From Candidatus Cloacimonadales bacterium (GTDB lineage: Bacteria; Cloacimonadota; Cloacimonadia; Cloacimonadales; JAIOQZ01), in contig CAXXTU010000002.1 in assembly GCA_963662655.2 (NCBI GenBank), positions 2,368,001-2,432,000 on the forward strand: a stretch of DNA of 64,000 nt. Direction: 5' to 3'. Each line of letters opens with the position of its first letter. Position 1 is the stretch's first letter. Below the pieces are notes generated by a model. The model had not been told where the DNA came from. It did no database searches and worked only from the letters and a program-made list of their open reading frames with translations. Below are positions 34,330-41,631 of the stretch, one piece after another. Both the position numbers and the translations under genes were made by a program.

Positions 34330-35301
34330 TTATATACCTAATTTGTTGCGGACAACCTGGCAGGTTTCAGCAAATCGCTTCGCTTCCTCCTGTCCGCGTG
34401 GAAACTTTGGGTAAATCCCTTCTGTTTTCAGAAAGCGCATGAACTCGCGAAGAACCTTACCTTCGTTCTCCGAGTAGTTTTGCTCCGGAGCGAGCTTCGC
34501 GTGAACGCCATCCGCGCCTGTCTCTGTCCAGTAGCGCCTCTTCATGTAGAGAGGCCTAAGCTTCAATGCGTAGAGAAGAAGGTTCGCGCCGGCAGTTGCC
34601 GACATTCCGTCGTACTTCTTCTTCTTGAACTCCATGTACTGCGAATACTCGATCGGATCGCTAACGCCTTCGTGCAGCAACCAGCCTGTCTCCGGGAAAA
34701 AGTGGTTGAAGTAGCCTCCAAACGTCAGACGGACGCCGTAGTCAGTGTCCTCCCAGGAGTATTGCCCGTAGTCGGTGCACCAGTACCCGAATTTCCGGAA
34801 AATCTCACCGCGTATCATCACGGCTCCACCGTATATCTCGGACTGGTTAGCCGGCGTGCTGACCTTCGTTCCGGAATCGAGAACGGTATCGAAAGTCTGC
34901 CTGTTCTCATGCTGGAAAAAATCGTAGGAAAGCGCTCCGAAATTGCTCCCCTGTGCGGCACCTACAATGCTCACCATGCGATCGAGCCAATCGGTATGAT
35001 GGACGACGATATCGTTGTCCATACGCAGGTAATAAGGAGTATCTTCCATATCCCATCCTGCGTTCGCAGCCGCTGCCAGACCGTAGTTCCTGTCCAGCAG
35101 AAGAAGGTTATCGATGCTTCCTTGCTCACGCTGCTCCAGCAACCATCGGCGCGTACCGTCCTCGCTGTTGTTATCGATGATCGTGAGGATGCAGGGGTAA
35201 TTCGTTTTGCTCCGAATGCTCTTCAGCGTCTCTTTCGTTCGTGCAAGCCGGTTGAAGGTGACAATAACGATATGAACCGCGTCGAGAGTCGCCCGACTCA
35301 T
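34330..35301 (-). CDS. Glycosyltransferase family 2
   Basis: 'IVIVTFNR', 'IIDNNSEDGT', 'N.GLAAAANAG', DxD 'MDND', 'WEDTDY'. Confidence 0.9.
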   Translation of the reverse strand: MSRATLDAVHIVIVTFNRLARTKETLKSIRSKTNYPCILTIIDNNSEDGTRRWLLEQREQGSIDNLLLLDRNYGLAAAANAGWDMEDTPYYLRMDNDIVVHHTDWLDRMVSIVGAAQGSNFGALSYDFFQHENRQTFDTVLDSGTKVSTPANQSEIYGGAVMIRGEIFRKFGYWCTDYGQYSWEDTDYGVRLTFGGYFNHFFPETGWLLHEGVSDPIEYSQYMEFKKKKYDGMSATAGANLLLYALKLRPLYMKRRYWTETGADGVHAKLAPEQNYSENEGKVLREFMRFLKTEGIYPKFPRGQEEAKRFAETCQVVRNKLGI

Positions 35302-36191
35302 GCCGTTTCCAGCTCCCGGATCTTCATGAGATATTTGCGAGCCGCCTGCAAGAAAGGCTCTTGCAGCTCCGGGGCGTCAAACTGATTGGCCACGCGCATG
35401 AAAGCGCTCACATAGTGGTTGTACAAGTTAAGCTCGGAATCGGAGTAATCGGGGCTGTGTACACTGGGCGAATGATTCTCGATCACGTACTCCATCAGGT
35501 GCAGCGTAGTTCTCAAGCGGGGAATCATGTTCTTGCAGATTTGCGCCTCATGGCTGCGCTTGAAGTAGTCCTGCAACTGATCCACCATCCGGAAGCGCAC
35601 GTTCAGCGCGTTCCGAACCACCCACGCGGTGTCGCCGAAATTCTCGAGCTCTCCATCGAAGTAACCGTGTGCCTCGAAAACTGCCTTCCGCACCAGGGCT
35701 CCTGTGTGTGGAATTCCGCCAATGGTGGTCTCCAGGAAAAGCTTTAGCAGGTTCTTCCGCTCGCTCAGACTGTAGTCGAGATAACGCCAGATCCGATTGG
35801 TTGGGGTCCCGTCTTCCTCAACGACAAGGAGTTTCTCCGGGTAGTAATAATCAAAATTGGGATTCGTCTCGATCGCTTCCATGCCACGTTCGAGGAATTT
35901 CGGTGATATGTAGTCATCGGAATCGATGTACATGATAAATTCGCCGCGGGATTCTTCCAACCCCCTGTTCTTCGTGTCCCAGCAACGCGTATGAGGTTTG
36001 GCAATCAATCGGATTCTTTCATCGTCAAACGAAGAAACGATCTCCGTGGTTCGATCCGTGGAGCCGTCATCGACCACCACGAGCTCCCAATCGGTGAAAC
36101 GCTGATTGACCACCGATTCAACTGCCCGTGCGATGTACTGCTCACGGTTGTAAACGGCAATAATCACACTTACTTTGGGCCTGTGTTTCAT
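35298..36191 (-). CDS. Glycosyltransferase family 2
   Basis: 'VSVIIAVYN', 'VVVDDGSTD', 'IDSDD'; ATG 36191 overlaps the upstream stop (ATGA). Confidence 0.92.
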   Translation of the reverse strand: MKHRPKVSVIIAVYNREQYIARAVESVVNQRFTDWELVVVDDGSTDRTTEIVSSFDDERIRLIAKPHTRCWDTKNRGLEESRGEFIMYIDSDDYISPKFLERGMEAIETNPNFDYYYPEKLLVVEEDGTPTNRIWRYLDYSLSERKNLLKLFLETTIGGIPHTGALVRKAVFEAHGYFDGELENFGDTAWVVRNALNVRFRMVDQLQDYFKRSHEAQICKNMIPRLRTTLHLMEYVIENHSPSVHSPDYSDSELNLYNHYVSAFMRVANQFDAPELQEPFLQAARKYLMKIRELETA

Positions 36192-36703
36192 CTCTCCTGA
36201 TTGCTTACCATTTGCCAGTATTCTTTCCATAGGTTCAAAAGCTCCTCTCGATTTGTTCCCAGCTTGCCGGCCACACCAAAGAGCGATACGGCTCCTTGCT
36301 GCACCAGACACCCGTCGCTTCTCGTAAGGCGCATGTTATCCCCGCTATCGAACCAGAAGGGATAAAGCCTGCAATAATAAGGTCGTGCGCTCTCACTCAG
36401 AAGGCAACCGCTTTCCGTGAGAAAAACGCATGCGCCATTGTTGATCAGAAGACGAGTGCGTGTGCCGTTTCTCAAAATCTCTGCCTGGGGAGGAAACCAG
36501 GTGAAGAGATATTGAACGAAATCGTGCCTCGGGACATCTTCGACCGTAAATTGGCCTGCATCCATGCCGGTGTCAAGAGAGATTCTCTCGACCTCCCCAG
36601 GAAGCAGTCCGAACATAAAGGTCTCATAGCCGGGCTCGATCCGGCAGCAGCCACCGCCATTCCCATGGCAGACAGCACATATCGAGGGGTTTGTTTCTTT
36701 CAT
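36188..36703 (-). CDS. YkgJ/FliB-like CxxCxxCC cysteine-cluster protein (possible flagellin lysine methylase)
   Basis: 'CAVC....GGCC', 'ACVFL...GC.L....RPYYCRLYPF'; directly downstream of the flagellins. Confidence 0.85.
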   Translation of the reverse strand: MKETNPSICAVCHGNGGGCCRIEPGYETFMFGLLPGEVERISLDTGMDAGQFTVEDVPRHDFVQYLFTWFPPQAEILRNGTRTRLLINNGACVFLTESGCLLSESARPYYCRLYPFWFDSGDNMRLTRSDGCLVQQGAVSLFGVAGKLGTNREELLNLWKEYWQMVSNQER

Positions 36704-36744: not shown

Positions 36745-36845
36745 AATCTCTGTTCGCTCGTTGTCAGAATCTTGTGTGATGAGAATCCAGCTCATGCATC
36801 CGCCTGCTCGCGCATCTTCTTCCCTGAATCCGGCGGAGATGAGAT

Positions 36846-36876
36846 TTATAAAATGGGCGGAGCGTCCCCCGCCCAT
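36846..36876 (-). terminator. Intrinsic terminator ending the flagellin 3' structured region
   Basis: ATGGGCGG...CCGCCCAT followed by TTTAT on the - strand. Confidence 0.7.
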
Positions 36877-36879
36877 CTG

Positions 36880-37280
36880 GTTCGGTTAGCCTAGCACTCC
36901 CAATGCCGTTGCGAGTCGAACCCGCGTCGACATTGCCACAGCAGATTTGCCAAAATTAATCTACGTGTGTAGATATCGTTCGCTCTTGAGGTACTGTCTT
37001 TGTCACTGTTGACTGTTGATTACGAGAGACTGTTTTTCAAGTCAGTTGCCGGTAACTTAGTTACCAGAGTTTTTGCGAAAAAACTCCAGCTGTGGTTTGT
37101 GCAATAACCGACAACCAGAAACAGTTAACCGTGTTTTGACACACCTCTCAAACGTTTGGGAGTAAACTCCCCTTTTGAGTGCTTACGCAGCTCTTTGCGA
37201 GTGACATGCGGATAATGCGGTCTATGCGGCAACGCAATGAGTTTTTCTCGGCAAATACCCATCGCAGTTGCGATATTCTT
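36880..37280 (-). ncRNA. Candidate large structured RNA downstream of the flagellin cluster
   Basis: Nested long-range helices and many hairpins, with long-range G-U pairs favouring the - strand; no credible ORF; ends at a terminator. Confidence 0.5.
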
Positions 37281-37282
37281 TA

Positions 37283-38242
37283 TTATCCGATAAGGCTGAG
37301 AGCCATTTGCGGCAATGAATTAGCCTGTGCCAACATACTTACCGCAGACTGGGTCAGGATCTGATTTCTTACGAATTCCGTCATCTCAGTCGCCACGTCG
37401 ACGTCAGAGATACGGGATTCAGCAGCCTGGACATTTTCTGCCTGGATCGACAGGTTGGAAATGGTGTTCTCCAAACGGTTCTGAACTGCACCGAGTGCAG
37501 CACGAGCGTTTTCTTTACGCAACATCGCGGTGTTGATGGTCTCCAGCGCCATCTGTGCAGCGTGCTGTGTACTCACAGCAACGTCAGCCGCACCGATTCC
37601 AAGTGCACTGGTTCTCATATCACCGATTCTGATGAAGTAGTAGTCTTCCGCACGTGAGTTTTCAGGACCAAAGTGGATCTTCGCGCCACCGGTAATATTA
37701 CCGTTGGCATCAAAAGTACCATTAACTTCCTGCCAGCCGCTACTGTTGGTATACATACTTTCAGTTGCGGTCCAGGTATTGTTGGACGTCCAGGATCCAC
37801 CTGATCCGGCGATTGAGACGTTACCATTCAACAGCTTGACGCCGTTGAAATCGGTTGCGTTGGCGATACGGTCGATTTCCGCAGCCATGGCAGCAAACTC
37901 GGAATGGATGATCAAACGTTGTTCGTTTGTATACGTACCGGTTGCAGCCTGTTCCGCCAGTTCCTTCATACGGATCAGTTTTTCGTCGATAACAGCCATC
38001 GCGCCTTCGGCGGTCTGGATCATCGAGATACCATCTTGCGCATTACGCACACCCTGATTAAGGGATGCGATTTCCGCGCGCATTCCTTCACGAATCGCAA
38101 GTCCTGCTGCGTCGTCCGCAGCTGAATTGATACGCAATCCGGTGGAAAGCCTTTCCACGGAAGTTGCAAGATTACCATAAGCCGATGTAAGGTTCCTGGC
38201 AGTACTCATCGCCATCATGTTGTGGTTGATTACGAGTGACAT
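37283..38242 (-). CDS. fliC: Flagellin (319 aa), copy 1
   Basis: 'MSLVINHN...ERLSTGLRINSAADDAAGLAI', 'QNRLE...ESRISDVDVA.EM...QANSLPQMALSLIG'; AAGGAGG RBS. Confidence 0.97.
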   Translation of the reverse strand: MSLVINHNMMAMSTARNLTSAYGNLATSVERLSTGLRINSAADDAAGLAIREGMRAEIASLNQGVRNAQDGISMIQTAEGAMAVIDEKLIRMKELAEQAATGTYTNEQRLIIHSEFAAMAAEIDRIANATDFNGVKLLNGNVSIAGSGGSWTSNNTWTATESMYTNSSGWQEVNGTFDANGNITGGAKIHFGPENSRAEDYYFIRIGDMRTSALGIGAADVAVSTQHAAQMALETINTAMLRKENARAALGAVQNRLENTISNLSIQAENVQAAESRISDVDVATEMTEFVRNQILTQSAVSMLAQANSLPQMALSLIG

Positions 38243-38280
38243 CTTTTCCTCCTTGATTGGTTGTAGGGCATCCATGCTGC
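38243..38280 (-). promoter_or_regulatory. Dual CsrA-type site in the flagellin 1 leader
   Basis: mRNA sense: GC-ATGGA-TGC hairpin ... AAGGAGGA Shine-Dalgarno. Confidence 0.7.
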
Positions 38281-38380
38281 TCATAAGACATTTGTCTTAT
38301 ATAGCAGTGGTTTGGCAATCTGCTATATTACCTAGGGTTAACCAAACCAATCAAAAGAAAGGAGACTATAACATCGCTCG

Positions 38381-39340
38381 TTATCCAATCAGACTGAGAG
38401 CCATTTGCGGCAAAGAGTTAGCTTGAGCCAACATACTGACCGCAGACTGTGTCAGTATCTGATTCCTGACGAATTGCGTCATTTCAGTTGCCACGTCGAC
38501 ATCCGAAATGCGTGATTCGGCAGCTTGAACGTTCTCTGCCTGGATAGAAAGGTTCGAGATCGTGTTTTCCAAGCGGTTCTGTACTGCACCAAGCGCCGCA
38601 CGAGCGTTTTCCTTACGCAACATTGCGGTATTGATCGTTTCCAGAGCCATCTGTGCAGCGTGCTGGGTACTCACGGCCACATCTGCCGCGCCAACGCCGA
38701 GGGCGCTGGTGCGCATGTCGCCGATGCGAATGAAGTAGTAGTCTTCGGAGCGGTTGTTACCCGCGCCAAAGTGGATCTTCGCGCCACCGGTAATGTTACC
38801 GTTTGCGTCGAAGGTACCATTTACTTCTTCCCATCCACTGCTATTGGCCAACATTCCTTCGCTTGCTGTCCAGGTGTTGTTTGCGTTCCATGAACCACTA
38901 GATCCTGCGATTGAAACGTTACCGTTAAGAAGTTTAACTCCGTTGAAATCGGTAGCATTGGCAATACGGTCAATTTCCGCAGCCATTGCCGCAAACTCGG
39001 AATGGATAATCAAACGTTGTTCGTTTGTGTATGTTCCGGTTGCTGCCTGTTCTGCTAATTCCTTCATGCGGATCAGCTTCTCGTCGATAACCGCCATCGC
39101 TCCTTCTGCGGTCTGGATCATCGAAATACCATCCTGAGCGTTTCTGATTCCTTGATTCAACGTTGCAATTTCTGCACGCATACCTTCACGGATCGCAAGA
39201 CCCGCGGCATCGTCTGCAGCAGAGTTGATACGAAGACCAGTGGAAAGACGCTCAACAGATGTACTCAGATTTCCATATGCTGAAGTCAGATTTCTGGCCG
39301 TGTTCATCGCCATCATGTTATGGTTGATTACGAGTGACAT
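38381..39340 (-). CDS. fliC: Flagellin (319 aa), copy 2
   Basis: Same N- and C-terminal flagellin domains; AAGGAGG RBS. Confidence 0.97.
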   Translation of the reverse strand: MSLVINHNMMAMNTARNLTSAYGNLSTSVERLSTGLRINSAADDAAGLAIREGMRAEIATLNQGIRNAQDGISMIQTAEGAMAVIDEKLIRMKELAEQAATGTYTNEQRLIIHSEFAAMAAEIDRIANATDFNGVKLLNGNVSIAGSSGSWNANNTWTASEGMLANSSGWEEVNGTFDANGNITGGAKIHFGAGNNRSEDYYFIRIGDMRTSALGVGAADVAVSTQHAAQMALETINTAMLRKENARAALGAVQNRLENTISNLSIQAENVQAAESRISDVDVATEMTQFVRNQILTQSAVSMLAQANSLPQMALSLIG

Positions 39341-39378
39341 CATTCCTCCTTGATTGGTTCTAACGGGCATCCATGCGA
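39341..39378 (-). promoter_or_regulatory. Dual CsrA-type site in the flagellin 2 leader
   Basis: mRNA sense: GC-ATGGA-TGC ... AAGGAGGA. Confidence 0.7.
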
Positions 39379-39476
39379 TATAAGACAACCGTCCTATATT
39401 GCGCTACGTTAGCTTATCTGCTTGTGTGTGTTTCGGCTAAACCAAACCAATCTATGAGGCAAAATCAGTCTCCTAA

Positions 39477-40436
39477 TTAACCAATCAGACTTAGCGCCAT
39501 CTGCGGCAGCGAGTTGGCCTGTGCCAACATGCTGACTGCAGACTGAGTCAGAATCTGATTTCGGACGAATTCCGTCATCTCGGTCGCTACGTCAACGTCC
39601 GATATACGGGATTCGGAGGCTTGCAAGTTTTCCGCCTGGGTTTGCAGGTTGGTAATGGTATTTTCCAGACGGTTCTGTATTGCACCCAGCGCAGCACGCG
39701 CGTTCTCCTTGCGGATAAGCGCAGTATTGAGCTGTTCCAGTGCAAGCTGAGCAGAATGCTGGGTACTCACAGCGGCGTCCGCTGAACCTACGCCAAGGGC
39801 GCTGGTGCGGATATCGCCGATGCGGATGAAGTAGTAGTCTTCGGCGCGGCTGTTGCCTGTACCGAAATGGATTTTGATACCACCGACAACGTCGCCGTTG
39901 GCGTTGGCCCGTCCATCTACTTCCTGCCATCCACTGCTGTTTGTATACATACCTTCATCTGAAACCCAAGTGTTGCTTGTGCCCCACGCACCGTTCGTTC
40001 CACCAACGGATACGTTTCCATTTAGAAGTTTTACACCGTTGAAATCGGTTGCATTGGCGATACGGTCGATTTCCGCCGCCATTGCTGCAAACTCGGAATG
40101 GATAATCAAACGTTGTTCGTTTGTATATGTACCGGTTGCAGCCTGTTCTGCAAGTTCCTTCATACGGATCAACTTTTCGTCGATAACGGCCATGGCTCCT
40201 TCGGCTGTTTGAATCAGAGAAATGCCATCCTGGGCATTACGAACACCCTGATTCAAAGCAGCTATGTCGGATCTCATACTTTCACGGATGGCAAGACCGG
40301 CCGCGTCATCCGCGGCGGAATTGATCCGAAGGCCGGTCGAAAGTCGTTCGACCGAAGTAGCGAGATCCCCATATGCAGCCGTAAGGTTACGTGCCGTGTT
40401 CATCGACATGAGGTTATGGTTAATTACGAGTGACAT
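39477..40436 (-). CDS. fliC: Flagellin (319 aa), copy 3
   Basis: Same flagellin domains; AAGGAGG RBS. Confidence 0.97.
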   Translation of the reverse strand: MSLVINHNLMSMNTARNLTAAYGDLATSVERLSTGLRINSAADDAAGLAIRESMRSDIAALNQGVRNAQDGISLIQTAEGAMAVIDEKLIRMKELAEQAATGTYTNEQRLIIHSEFAAMAAEIDRIANATDFNGVKLLNGNVSVGGTNGAWGTSNTWVSDEGMYTNSSGWQEVDGRANANGDVVGGIKIHFGTGNSRAEDYYFIRIGDIRTSALGVGSADAAVSTQHSAQLALEQLNTALIRKENARAALGAIQNRLENTITNLQTQAENLQASESRISDVDVATEMTEFVRNQILTQSAVSMLAQANSLPQMALSLIG

Positions 40437-40517: not shown

Positions 40518-40620
40518 CTAACAAGTTTCTCATCACATTATGTTCTTGTGAAAGATCCTGGAATTCTCGAGCGAATTCGTTAAACGCTTTTGTTAAAGGT
40601 CGTGGGAGTTGCTTGCGACG

Positions 40621-40648
40621 TTATCGATCAATCTCTATTTTACTTACT
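40621..40648 (-). promoter_or_regulatory. Possible sigma28 (FliA) promoter upstream of flagellins 3-2-1
   Basis: TAAG-N14-ATCGATAA versus consensus TAAA-N15-GCCGATAA. Confidence 0.35.
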
Positions 40649-40668: not shown

Positions 40669-41631
40669 TTAACCCATCAGCTGCAGTGCCATCTGCGGAA
40701 GCGAGTTGGCCTGTGCGAGCATTGCGGTTGCAGCCTGTGTCAGTACCTGGTTTTTGACGAATTCGGACATTTCTGCCGCGATATCTACATCGGAGATATC
40801 GGATTCAGCAGCTTGCAGGTTTTCCGCCTGAGACGTCAGAGCGGTGATGGTGTTTTCAAGTCTCTGCATCATCGATCCAAGATGCGCGCGATGGTGCTCT
40901 TTCATGAGGATCGCCGAGTCAATCTGTTCCAGCGCTTGCTGTGCGAGGTGCTGGGTGGAGATTGATATCTTGGAGGCTGCTGAAGCAGTGGGGTCACCGA
41001 TTTCCTGGAACAGGCCGTTGGTCGACATGTCACCGATGTTGATGAAGTAGTAGTCTTCCAGACGGTTGTTGGTGAGTCCGAAGTGGATCTTGACACCGAC
41101 ATTGTTGGCATACTCGCCTTCAGCATCGTAGTTGTTGGCTGTCAAACTCGACGCACCTGATTGCAACCACCCACCCACGGTAATGTTGTTGTGGGCGTTG
41201 GTTGACAGATCACCGTTGAGGAGCTTGCGACCAGCGAATTCGGTTGCCGTAGCGATACGATCGATTTCCGCCGCCATTGCTGCAAATTCGGAATGCATAA
41301 TCTGACGCTGCTCGTGGGTGTAGGTACCCGTTGCAGCCTGTTCTGCGAGCTCTTTCATGCGGATGAGCTTCTCGTCGATAACCGCCATTGCTCCTTCGGC
41401 GGTTTCGAGCATGTTGATTGCCATTCCTGCATTCTCAATACCCTGATGCATCACACTGATATCTGCCCGCATTTTTTCACGTACCGCAAGGCCCGCAGCG
41501 TCGTCCTTAGCGGAATTGATTCTCAAACCAGTGGAAAGACGTTCGATGGAGGTTCCCATCTTGCTGTAATTGCTGTTCAGTGCGTTTGCAGAACGTACTG
41601 CAAACATATTGGTGTTAATTGAAAGTCCCAT
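40669..41631 (-). CDS. fliC: Flagellin (divergent copy 4)
   Basis: 'MGLSINTN...ERLSTGLRINSAKDDAAGLAV', 'QANSLPQMALQLMG'; start at 41631 or 41637. Confidence 0.96.
   Translation of the reverse strand: MGLSINTNMFAVRSANALNSNYSKMGTSIERLSTGLRINSAKDDAAGLAVREKMRADISVMHQGIENAGMAINMLETAEGAMAVIDEKLIRMKELAEQAATGTYTHEQRQIMHSEFAAMAAEIDRIATATEFAGRKLLNGDLSTNAHNNITVGGWLQSGASSLTANNYDAEGEYANNVGVKIHFGLTNNRLEDYYFINIGDMSTNGLFQEIGDPTASAASKISISTQHLAQQALEQIDSAILMKEHHRAHLGSMMQRLENTITALTSQAENLQAAESDISDVDIAAEMSEFVKNQVLTQAATAMLAQANSLPQMALQLMG

Follow-up and report, generated by a model that had tools for sequence, protein, structure and literature searches.

The E. coli RNA FliX originates from the 3' end of fliC. FliX and its kin are described as UTR-derived, sigma28-dependent flagellar sRNAs, with FliX pairing within coding regions and acting on ribosomal protein mRNAs (PMC10578931). 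In Campylobacter, FlmE (CJnc230) and FlmR (CJnc170) are presented as flagellar sRNAs of the middle and late stages, which keep the hierarchy in balance; FlmE, which lies behind flgE and arises by processing of a flagellar mRNA 3' end, represses flgM and Cj1387c (PMC11187230). [quoted passage not shown] FlaX is also described as activating other flagellins by opening an RBS-blocking structure, with FlaY as a candidate sponge (10.64898/2026.08.28.747715). It is 265 nt long, exceeds 300 nt in V. parahaemolyticus, has a lineage-specific 5' extension, and has been proposed to order flagellins along the filament (PMC11879080; 10.64898/2026.08.28.747715).

Here we analyse an RNA encoded directly behind the stop codon of the last of four tandem flagellins in a Cloacimonadales genome, within a window of 64,000 nt (the whole stretch of DNA analysed). 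Like FlaX as described, it is long, lies in a flagellin 3' UTR and pairs through several sites with flagellin 5' UTRs, here as a computed and comparative result. Opening of an RBS-blocking structure is predicted here in 27 of 38 late flagellin leaders and is weak for the last flagellin. It differs from the published FlaX in several respects. It comes from another phylum; ProQ was not found in the window's genome (no PF04352 match in G000, 99% complete), nor Hfq in any of the four genomes of the genus. Its place is behind the final gene of a tandem array that itself supplies targets, and it pairs with the sigma54-type leader of a flgI...csrA...fliW operon. Its putative promoters are sigma28-like matches ahead of flagellins 1 and 2, whereas FlaX is described as co-transcribed from the sigma54 promoter of the major flagellin. 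An internal decoy is present here, and a short ORF in other lineages. We do not file it as FlaX, because ProQ was not found, because phylum, position and targets differ, and because the two were compared by features rather than by sequence. FliX and FlmE/FlmR are more distant analogues. FliX is alike in being a UTR-derived flagellar sRNA, its described targets being those given above; identity with FliX was rejected, as blastn of the RNA against E. coli genomes and plasmids gave no match and Hfq was found in 0/4 genus genomes. The described position and targets of FlmE are unlike those of the Cloacimonadales RNA. Binding to the strand that blocks a ribosome site is shared with DsrA and RprA, anti-antisense activators of rpoS that, unlike the present RNA, are Hfq-dependent and non-flagellar. 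A CsrB-type CsrA sponge was also rejected, the conserved arms being without repeated GGA loops. In literature searches on flagellin and noncoding RNA in Cloacimonadota, flgI-leader pairing by sRNAs, flagellin sponges made by early termination and CMfinder motifs behind flagellins, with supplements and most subscription journals outside their reach, no title or abstract opening described this RNA. The RNA family is real and apparently undescribed, and the covariation evidence for its targets is exceptionally clear; large RNA-motif catalogues held in supplements could bear on its novelty.

Setting, extent and distribution

The array comprises the divergent flagellin 1 (59%; 40669-41631), whose leader is without a target site, flagellin 2 (39477-40436), flagellin 3 (38381-39340) and flagellin 4, the last (37283-38242; PF00669 and PF00700). 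These genes, their leaders and promoter matches, and the parts of the RNA given below lie on the minus strand. The closest named relatives of the flagellins come from Candidatus Cloacimonadales/Cloacimonadota. Ahead of flagellins 1 and 2, only sequence matches resembling the sigma28 consensus were seen. The first lies at 41956-41931; the second (40621-40646) was picked by eye, the script pattern giving no match there, and near-consensus matches precede flagellin 2 in G022, G012, G199, G200, G016 and G038. The genome also encodes FlhA, FliA and an unlinked fifth flagellin (C2:95750), and carries, about 310 kb from the array, a flgI-flgJ-flgN-flgK-csrA-flgL-fliW operon in which flgL was named by its Flagellin_N match and position.

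A preliminary description placed an RNA with no credible ORF directly behind the last flagellin stop, and both points were borne out: 36880-37280 holds no minus-strand ORF with a start and an SD. The fold of these 401 nt is better than that of dinucleotide-shuffled controls (z -5.0; 0/100 shuffles equally good). From sequence and comparison, the whole RNA probably extends from 37282 to 36716, that is, from the flagellin stop to a probable intrinsic terminator (about 565 nt; z -5.1 for the full length, folded as 571 nt). It had earlier been taken to end at a GC hairpin with a GACG loop (36876-36853), in which 7 of 12 pairs show double changes. We regard this hairpin as probably internal, because a covarying arm (arm D, below) and a hairpin with a U-tract were found 3' of it. 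The latter, at 36739-36716 (-15 kcal/mol), is the probable terminator; a script search finds a hairpin and U-tract 60-190 nt 3' of the GC hairpin in 17/20 genomes, and a stock terminator scan of the window listed neither structure. The first reading overlooked the flagellar targets as well as the 3' arm and the likely true terminator. Behind the terminator lie a gene for a cysteine-cluster protein without a Pfam match (36188-36703) and two family-2 glycosyltransferase genes (35298-36311 and 34330-35301), possibly flagellin modification genes; G005 and G006 have a similar downstream arrangement.

Rfam cmscan returned no family at gathering score over the window, only three sub-threshold matches (E<=10) outside the element, and with Rfam 15 none exceeded the gathering score in the window or in eight homologous loci. 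The earlier failure to match tmRNA, RNase P, SRP, 6S or introns agrees with the covariance models, none of which reached gathering score; tmRNA, RNase P, 6S and SRP each occupy their own locus elsewhere in the genome. ARAGORN reports a tRNA-like gene with an anticodon call of four bases at G000:C2:3266307-3266403.

The conserved core of the RNA tracks flagellin closely. It occurs in 20/232 genomes of the phylum and Flagellin_N in 23/232; all 20 are among the 23, and the core is found in 0/209 genomes without Flagellin_N. The exceptions are G140 (one match, without flgI), G201 (64% complete, with a FlgL-like match only) and G202, which has flagellins and flgI and whose flagellin array is interrupted by contig ends. 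The core model R1 gave no match in these three or in G008, and none that was credible on 60 Desulfovibrio-type flagellin loci, where the best (17.5 bits) fell within a flagellin end; the core pattern had no match in viral contigs. In 18/18 loci inspected the core stands behind a flagellin, with varying genes further downstream. Metagenome pattern matches, several of which duplicate the phylum genomes counted, lie behind a flagellin in 17/19 cases, the remaining two being unrelated sequence. Flagellin itself is patchy in Cloacimonadota: the 23/232 genomes belong chiefly to six families, and most carry an array of 4-6 genes together with one orphan.

The full length can be aligned only within the genus (84-86%) and the last ~105 nt across the order; only this ~105-nt core, a 3' arm and arm A recur beyond the genus. 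The 5' ~300 nt, alignable only within the genus, show a double change in just 4/126 predicted pairs and are replaced by ~50 nt in many genomes. They include a 9-nt hairpin loop (loop K, 37246-37254) and a genus-specific rod and multibranch domain (36988-37147), unalignable beyond the genus, which holds arm A (37013-37030); at 37089-37118 lies an internal decoy, a target-like copy able to pair arms B and C in cis. Further 3' come the near-invariant arm B (36936-36953), a spacer hairpin with a conserved base and variable top (36901-36935; 97.8% of cells paired), arm C with its invariant 14-nt block (36871-36900), the GC hairpin, and arm D (36844-36836, 36785-36775 and 36773-36765, within 36765-36844). 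Within the core the unpaired arms are near-invariant and two hairpins stay paired (98.5% of cells, 8 double-change pairs, 0/500 shuffles). Of the helices in the preliminary description, the four tested all exist as complementary strings. Two are predicted to be well populated, 37138-47/36988-98 (pairing probability ~1.0) and 36928-35/36901-08, in the spacer hairpin (~0.9); 37108-16/37044-52 is weak (0.14) and 37250-56/36945-51 is predicted not to form (0.00). Its short repeats (CCGCAU x3, ACAGU x4) are present, and its T-loop-like apex lies in a hairpin with a top that varies freely outside the genus. Homologs with covariation, which it had called for, do exist: two core hairpins and the pairings with the flgI and flagellin-2 leaders covary across relatives.

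The GACG loop caps the GC hairpin in 16/17 aligned RNAs and, judged by eye, a hairpin in about 13/19 flgI leaders (L110, L148, L153-L157, L159, L161, L162, L232); among the 427 intergenic tetraloops of G000 it occurs just 5 times. The GACG-loop hairpin is a possible protein-binding site.

Pairing with flagellar leaders

Pairing between the RNA and flagellar leaders is strongly supported by the sequence comparisons, in which four sets of predicted RNA-RNA contacts are shown comparatively: with flagellins 3 onward, flagellin 2, the unlinked flagellin and the flgI operon. In the last case two segments, the 18-nt arm A (37030-37013) and 36885-36871 (the 3' end of arm C with the first strand of the GC hairpin), are perfect antisense to the flgI leader at G000:C2:2095415-2095432 and G000:C2:2095374-2095388, behind a motif resembling the sigma54 consensus. 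Over 2863 leaders, derived from our own gene calls, these helices rank 1 and 2 among 714 strict helices, and for arm A the flgI leader ranks 1 of the 2863. Arm A forms 11-21 nt runs in 10/10 genomes having both motif and leader, with matching arm and leader changes in G005, G006 and G007/G004; in short forms without arm A, a segment just 5' of arm C pairs instead (6/7 family-f6 leaders). The arm C site is present in 17/17 genomes with an intact flgI leader and in 19/19 after adding G200 and G005; flgI was not found in the G010 assembly.

Across 17 genomes, the 16-bp register of the flgI helix contains 260 Watson-Crick, 7 G-U and 5 unpaired cells, the unpaired ones all in two end columns. The permutation mean is 245 (0/20000; 26/100000 with one genome per genus); these and the permutation values below overstate significance in that the genomes are related rather than independent. 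Concerted changes of RNA and leader include AG/CU, AA/UU, GA/UC and GG/CC at one dinucleotide and C/G to U/A elsewhere. The held-out G200 and G005 match, and private changes of G005 in arms C and A are mirrored in its leader. Counted by eye on the branches of a FlgI tree, there are at least five separate compensatory changes, one of them in a held-out genome.

In the flgI leaders of G001, G002, G003 and G011 (L148, L101, L102, L161) the arm A target is present in two or three tandem copies, an arrangement that fits a sponge or cooperative binding. G003 carries the flgI operon twice (C3:9500-13600 and C4:53700-57800; L103, L102) with near-identical leaders, either a duplication or an assembly artefact. 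Folding took in 16 flgI leaders, leaving out G015 and G202; in 11 of these, a GC hairpin with 5-7 U in 8 nt lies within 14 nt behind the site. The same terminator-like hairpin was seen by eye in the flgI leaders of G015 and G005 and is absent from those of the window's genus and G006. A simple terminator/antiterminator switch was considered and is unsupported by equilibrium folding of the 16 leaders: no such switch is predicted, because blocking the site leaves the hairpin unaltered, and SD access changes in few genomes. Site and hairpin seem to lie too close together for control during transcription, and we therefore favour a short leader RNA as antagonist. In the RNA's GC hairpin, the 3' strand has its mimic in the flgI site, which could invade that hairpin. 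A further candidate is a kissing contact between loop K and a complementary hairpin loop in the flgI leader, found in 4/4 genus genomes. It is a weak one: loop K ranks only 90 of 2863 leaders and, being invariant in the genus, is without covariation.

Leaders of flagellins 3 onward carry a site A followed by a site B, the first complementary to arm C and the second to arm B, and the duplexes are predicted to form a three-way junction around the spacer hairpin. The flagellin 3 leader (39341-39452) holds site A at 39452-39435, site B at 39422-39409, a hairpin at 39377-39366 and an anti-SD stem; the flagellin 4 leader (38243-38352) holds site A at 38352-38336, site B at 38324-38311 and a GGA hairpin at 38278-38267, and its pre-SD and SD (38262-38243) pair back on site A. 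In late leaders generally, site A pairs in addition with the nucleotides immediately ahead of the SD, in a stem that covaries over 44 leaders (3/50000). These 44 late leaders bind the core with a median of -15.2 kcal/mol versus -6.9 for shuffled sequences; 28 beat all 15 shuffles and 16 do not. First-gene leaders bind at -5.9 kcal/mol (0/17 beat all shuffles) and second-gene leaders at -8.8 (4/19). Opening the SD costs 6.9 kcal/mol for late leaders and 3.3-3.6 for early ones; on binding, the late value drops to 4.1. The predicted duplex covers the SD itself in 6/44; of the other 38, 27 open by more than 1 kcal. For flagellin 3 here the cost falls from 8.2 to 5.4 kcal/mol. For the last flagellin of the genus, binding hardly lowers this cost (7.0 to 6.8 here; 9.5 to 8.8, 8.2 to 8.0 and 8.4 to 8.4 in its relatives of the genus), and in G007 and G004 the last flagellin leader stays unbound in the cofold. 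When duplexes are scored loosely over all 2863 leaders, the two late ones here reach only modest ranks, 68 and 790 for arm C and 357 and 202 for arm B. Because arms B and C are near-invariant, the case for late-leader pairing rests on conservation more than on covariation. Hairpins that we presume, from their consensus, to be of the CsrA-binding GGA type precede the flagellin SDs (38278-38267, 39377-39366 and homologous leaders), and the flgI operon, itself a target, includes csrA and fliW.

Arm D is antisense to a conserved motif in the flagellin-2 leader (40527-40557), behind the sigma28-like match. The helices are 7-20 bp long, and cognate pairs exceed permuted ones (0/100000) both in 19 genomes, with G002 and G003 scored on a shortened arm D region, and in a set of 12 with one per genus; the cognate leader ranks first in 10/19. 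Some 90-120 nt separate the site from the start codon, and the SD is open beforehand. The leader of the unlinked (orphan) flagellin, with which arm B also pairs, binds the core better than at least 59/60 shuffles in 12/13 genomes. Targets at the orphan flagellin and flgI mean that action in trans is required. A STAS-like gene, so labelled from reading of its sequence, has two good matches in its leader here; it was rejected as a target, since these are missing in 3/3 relatives.

Masking of the arms and traces in RNA libraries

The decoy of long forms beats at least 19/20 shuffles in 12/15 cases; in the window RNA, the alternative fold that uses it lies 3.9 kcal/mol above the MFE. In all 14 short forms (L012-L015, L017, L006, L116, L117, L190, L193, L198, L199, L201, L205) there is a strong SD, and an ORF of 28-35 codons runs across arm B and the hairpin, with the stop beside arm C; such an ORF over arm B is absent from the window genome. 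The reading frames differ, and thus the act of translation, rather than the peptide, may matter. We infer that decoy and short ORF both mask the arms in the primary transcript. The decoy resembles a flagellin-leader remnant in G010, G019 and L204, and in L009, L016 and L204 a whole late-flagellin leader without its gene stands directly behind the last flagellin stop. Such gene-less leaders suggest that the long 5' extensions derive from decayed flagellin duplicates. In G015 (L018:1355-1500) a sigma70-like promoter match lies in the UTR just ahead of the core, and the RNA of this genome may have its own transcription start.

Contigs of relatives in metatranscriptome X3 span 36935-37370, across the flagellin stop, and a contig in X11 covers 36799-37071, past the GC hairpin. 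These contigs lack strand and ends, and RNA libraries can hold DNA; expression is therefore only hinted at. Missing RNA-run cover over the downstream genes may reflect divergence and was not used as evidence.

Readings of the RNA and their meaning

The proposal of an undescribed flagellin-associated RNA that forms a system with the array is upheld by co-occurrence, the lack of an Rfam family and the covarying leader pairing. Very probably it is a base-pairing flagellar regulator. As a whole reading, we think it likely that this multi-arm RNA at the 3' end of the flagellin operon is an activator-timer that orders flagellar expression post-transcriptionally. Late flagellin leaders are predicted to fold so that site A covers SD-proximal bases, and arms C and B would bind sites A and B and free the SD, in an anti-antisense activation. 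Lying last on a unit presumably driven from sigma28-type promoters, the RNA would be transcribed last, then probably released, or else unmasked, by RNase E/G or RNase III (genes for both are present in 4/4 genus genomes) and would accumulate. An RNA made last and accumulating would mean that flagellins 1-2 come first and 3-4 later, and the delay would order flagellins along the filament. The flgI leader would most likely be a middle-stage antagonist that invades the GC hairpin from a toehold on arm C and titrates the RNA. The flagellin-2 and flgI contacts are proposed at the level of pairing, and their effect could have either sign.

The same pairings would also be seen if the RNA were never released and the 3' UTR of the intact polycistronic mRNA folded back on its own leaders, so that late flagellins would be translated only from finished transcripts. 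Arm D would join the two ends of the mRNA, arms B and C would unlock one late flagellin, and the flgI leader would act in trans. A single presumed transcript bears three of the four target types, arm D stands just before the terminator and its site near the presumed 5' end, and RNA contigs bridge the flagellin stop codon. However, one pair of arms could not serve 2-4 late leaders simultaneously, and the unlinked flagellin and flgI leaders require pairing in trans; we consider this explanation improbable. It is unlikelier still that the RNA is chiefly a repressor, its duplexes recruiting RNase III or blocking ribosome standby sites as negative feedback after the filament is built. RNase III is present, duplexes of 15-20 bp are plausible substrates, the reported repression of flaB by FlaX acts through three sites (PMC11879080), and the SD of the last flagellin here is predicted to open little. 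Against this, site A is the exact strand that sequesters SD-proximal bases, in a stem that covaries, and the median SD cost drops on binding. Repression of flagellin 2 and flgI may nevertheless occur.

Of the three functions first suggested for the RNA (regulator, scaffold or ribozyme), only the first is supported. The strong folding signal (z -5.0 and -5.1) would suit a large folded ribozyme or protein scaffold, but the 5' 300 nt are genus-specific, shrink to ~50 nt in many genomes and hold few covarying pairs, the distance from stop to arm C in metagenome relatives ranges from 112 to 678 nt, there is no Rfam match, and the invariant parts are unpaired arms. We give this very little credence. 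Least credible of all is an origin at the DNA level, through shared inverted protein-binding or promoter motifs or old duplications. Although the matches were first noticed as DNA similarity, cells within the flgI helix that depart from Watson-Crick pairing are, on the RNA strand, G-U pairs (7 G-U), partners follow lineage-private changes, and the order of sites differs between partners.

The activator-timer reading can be extended, tentatively and with more doubt than belief, to a filament-assembly timer that works without a chaperone: a self-masked RNA, held in check by an anti-RNA from the flgI leader, that later unlocks the late flagellins. Masking would be by the internal decoy in some lineages and by the translated short ORF in others. 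A short anti-RNA, arising from early termination in the sigma54 flgI-csrA-fliW leader, would keep the RNA below threshold. Once late transcription wins, the late flagellins would be unlocked, and flagellin 2 and the CsrA-FliW checkpoint retuned. Some protein may read the shared GACG-loop hairpins instead of Hfq or ProQ.

If the activator-timer reading is true, the logic of FlaX, in which an RNA from a flagellin 3' end orders several flagellins, would have an independent origin in a mostly uncultured phylum. It would work there apparently without Hfq or ProQ, wired directly to the operon that serves both CsrA-FliW and the junction of hook and filament. Covariation across an order reveals the RNA-RNA contacts, as is seldom the case for bacterial sRNAs, and the contacts specify exact compensatory mutations. 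Why bacteria maintain 4-6 near-identical flagellins, and in what way these are ordered, would become testable in a simple reporter system.
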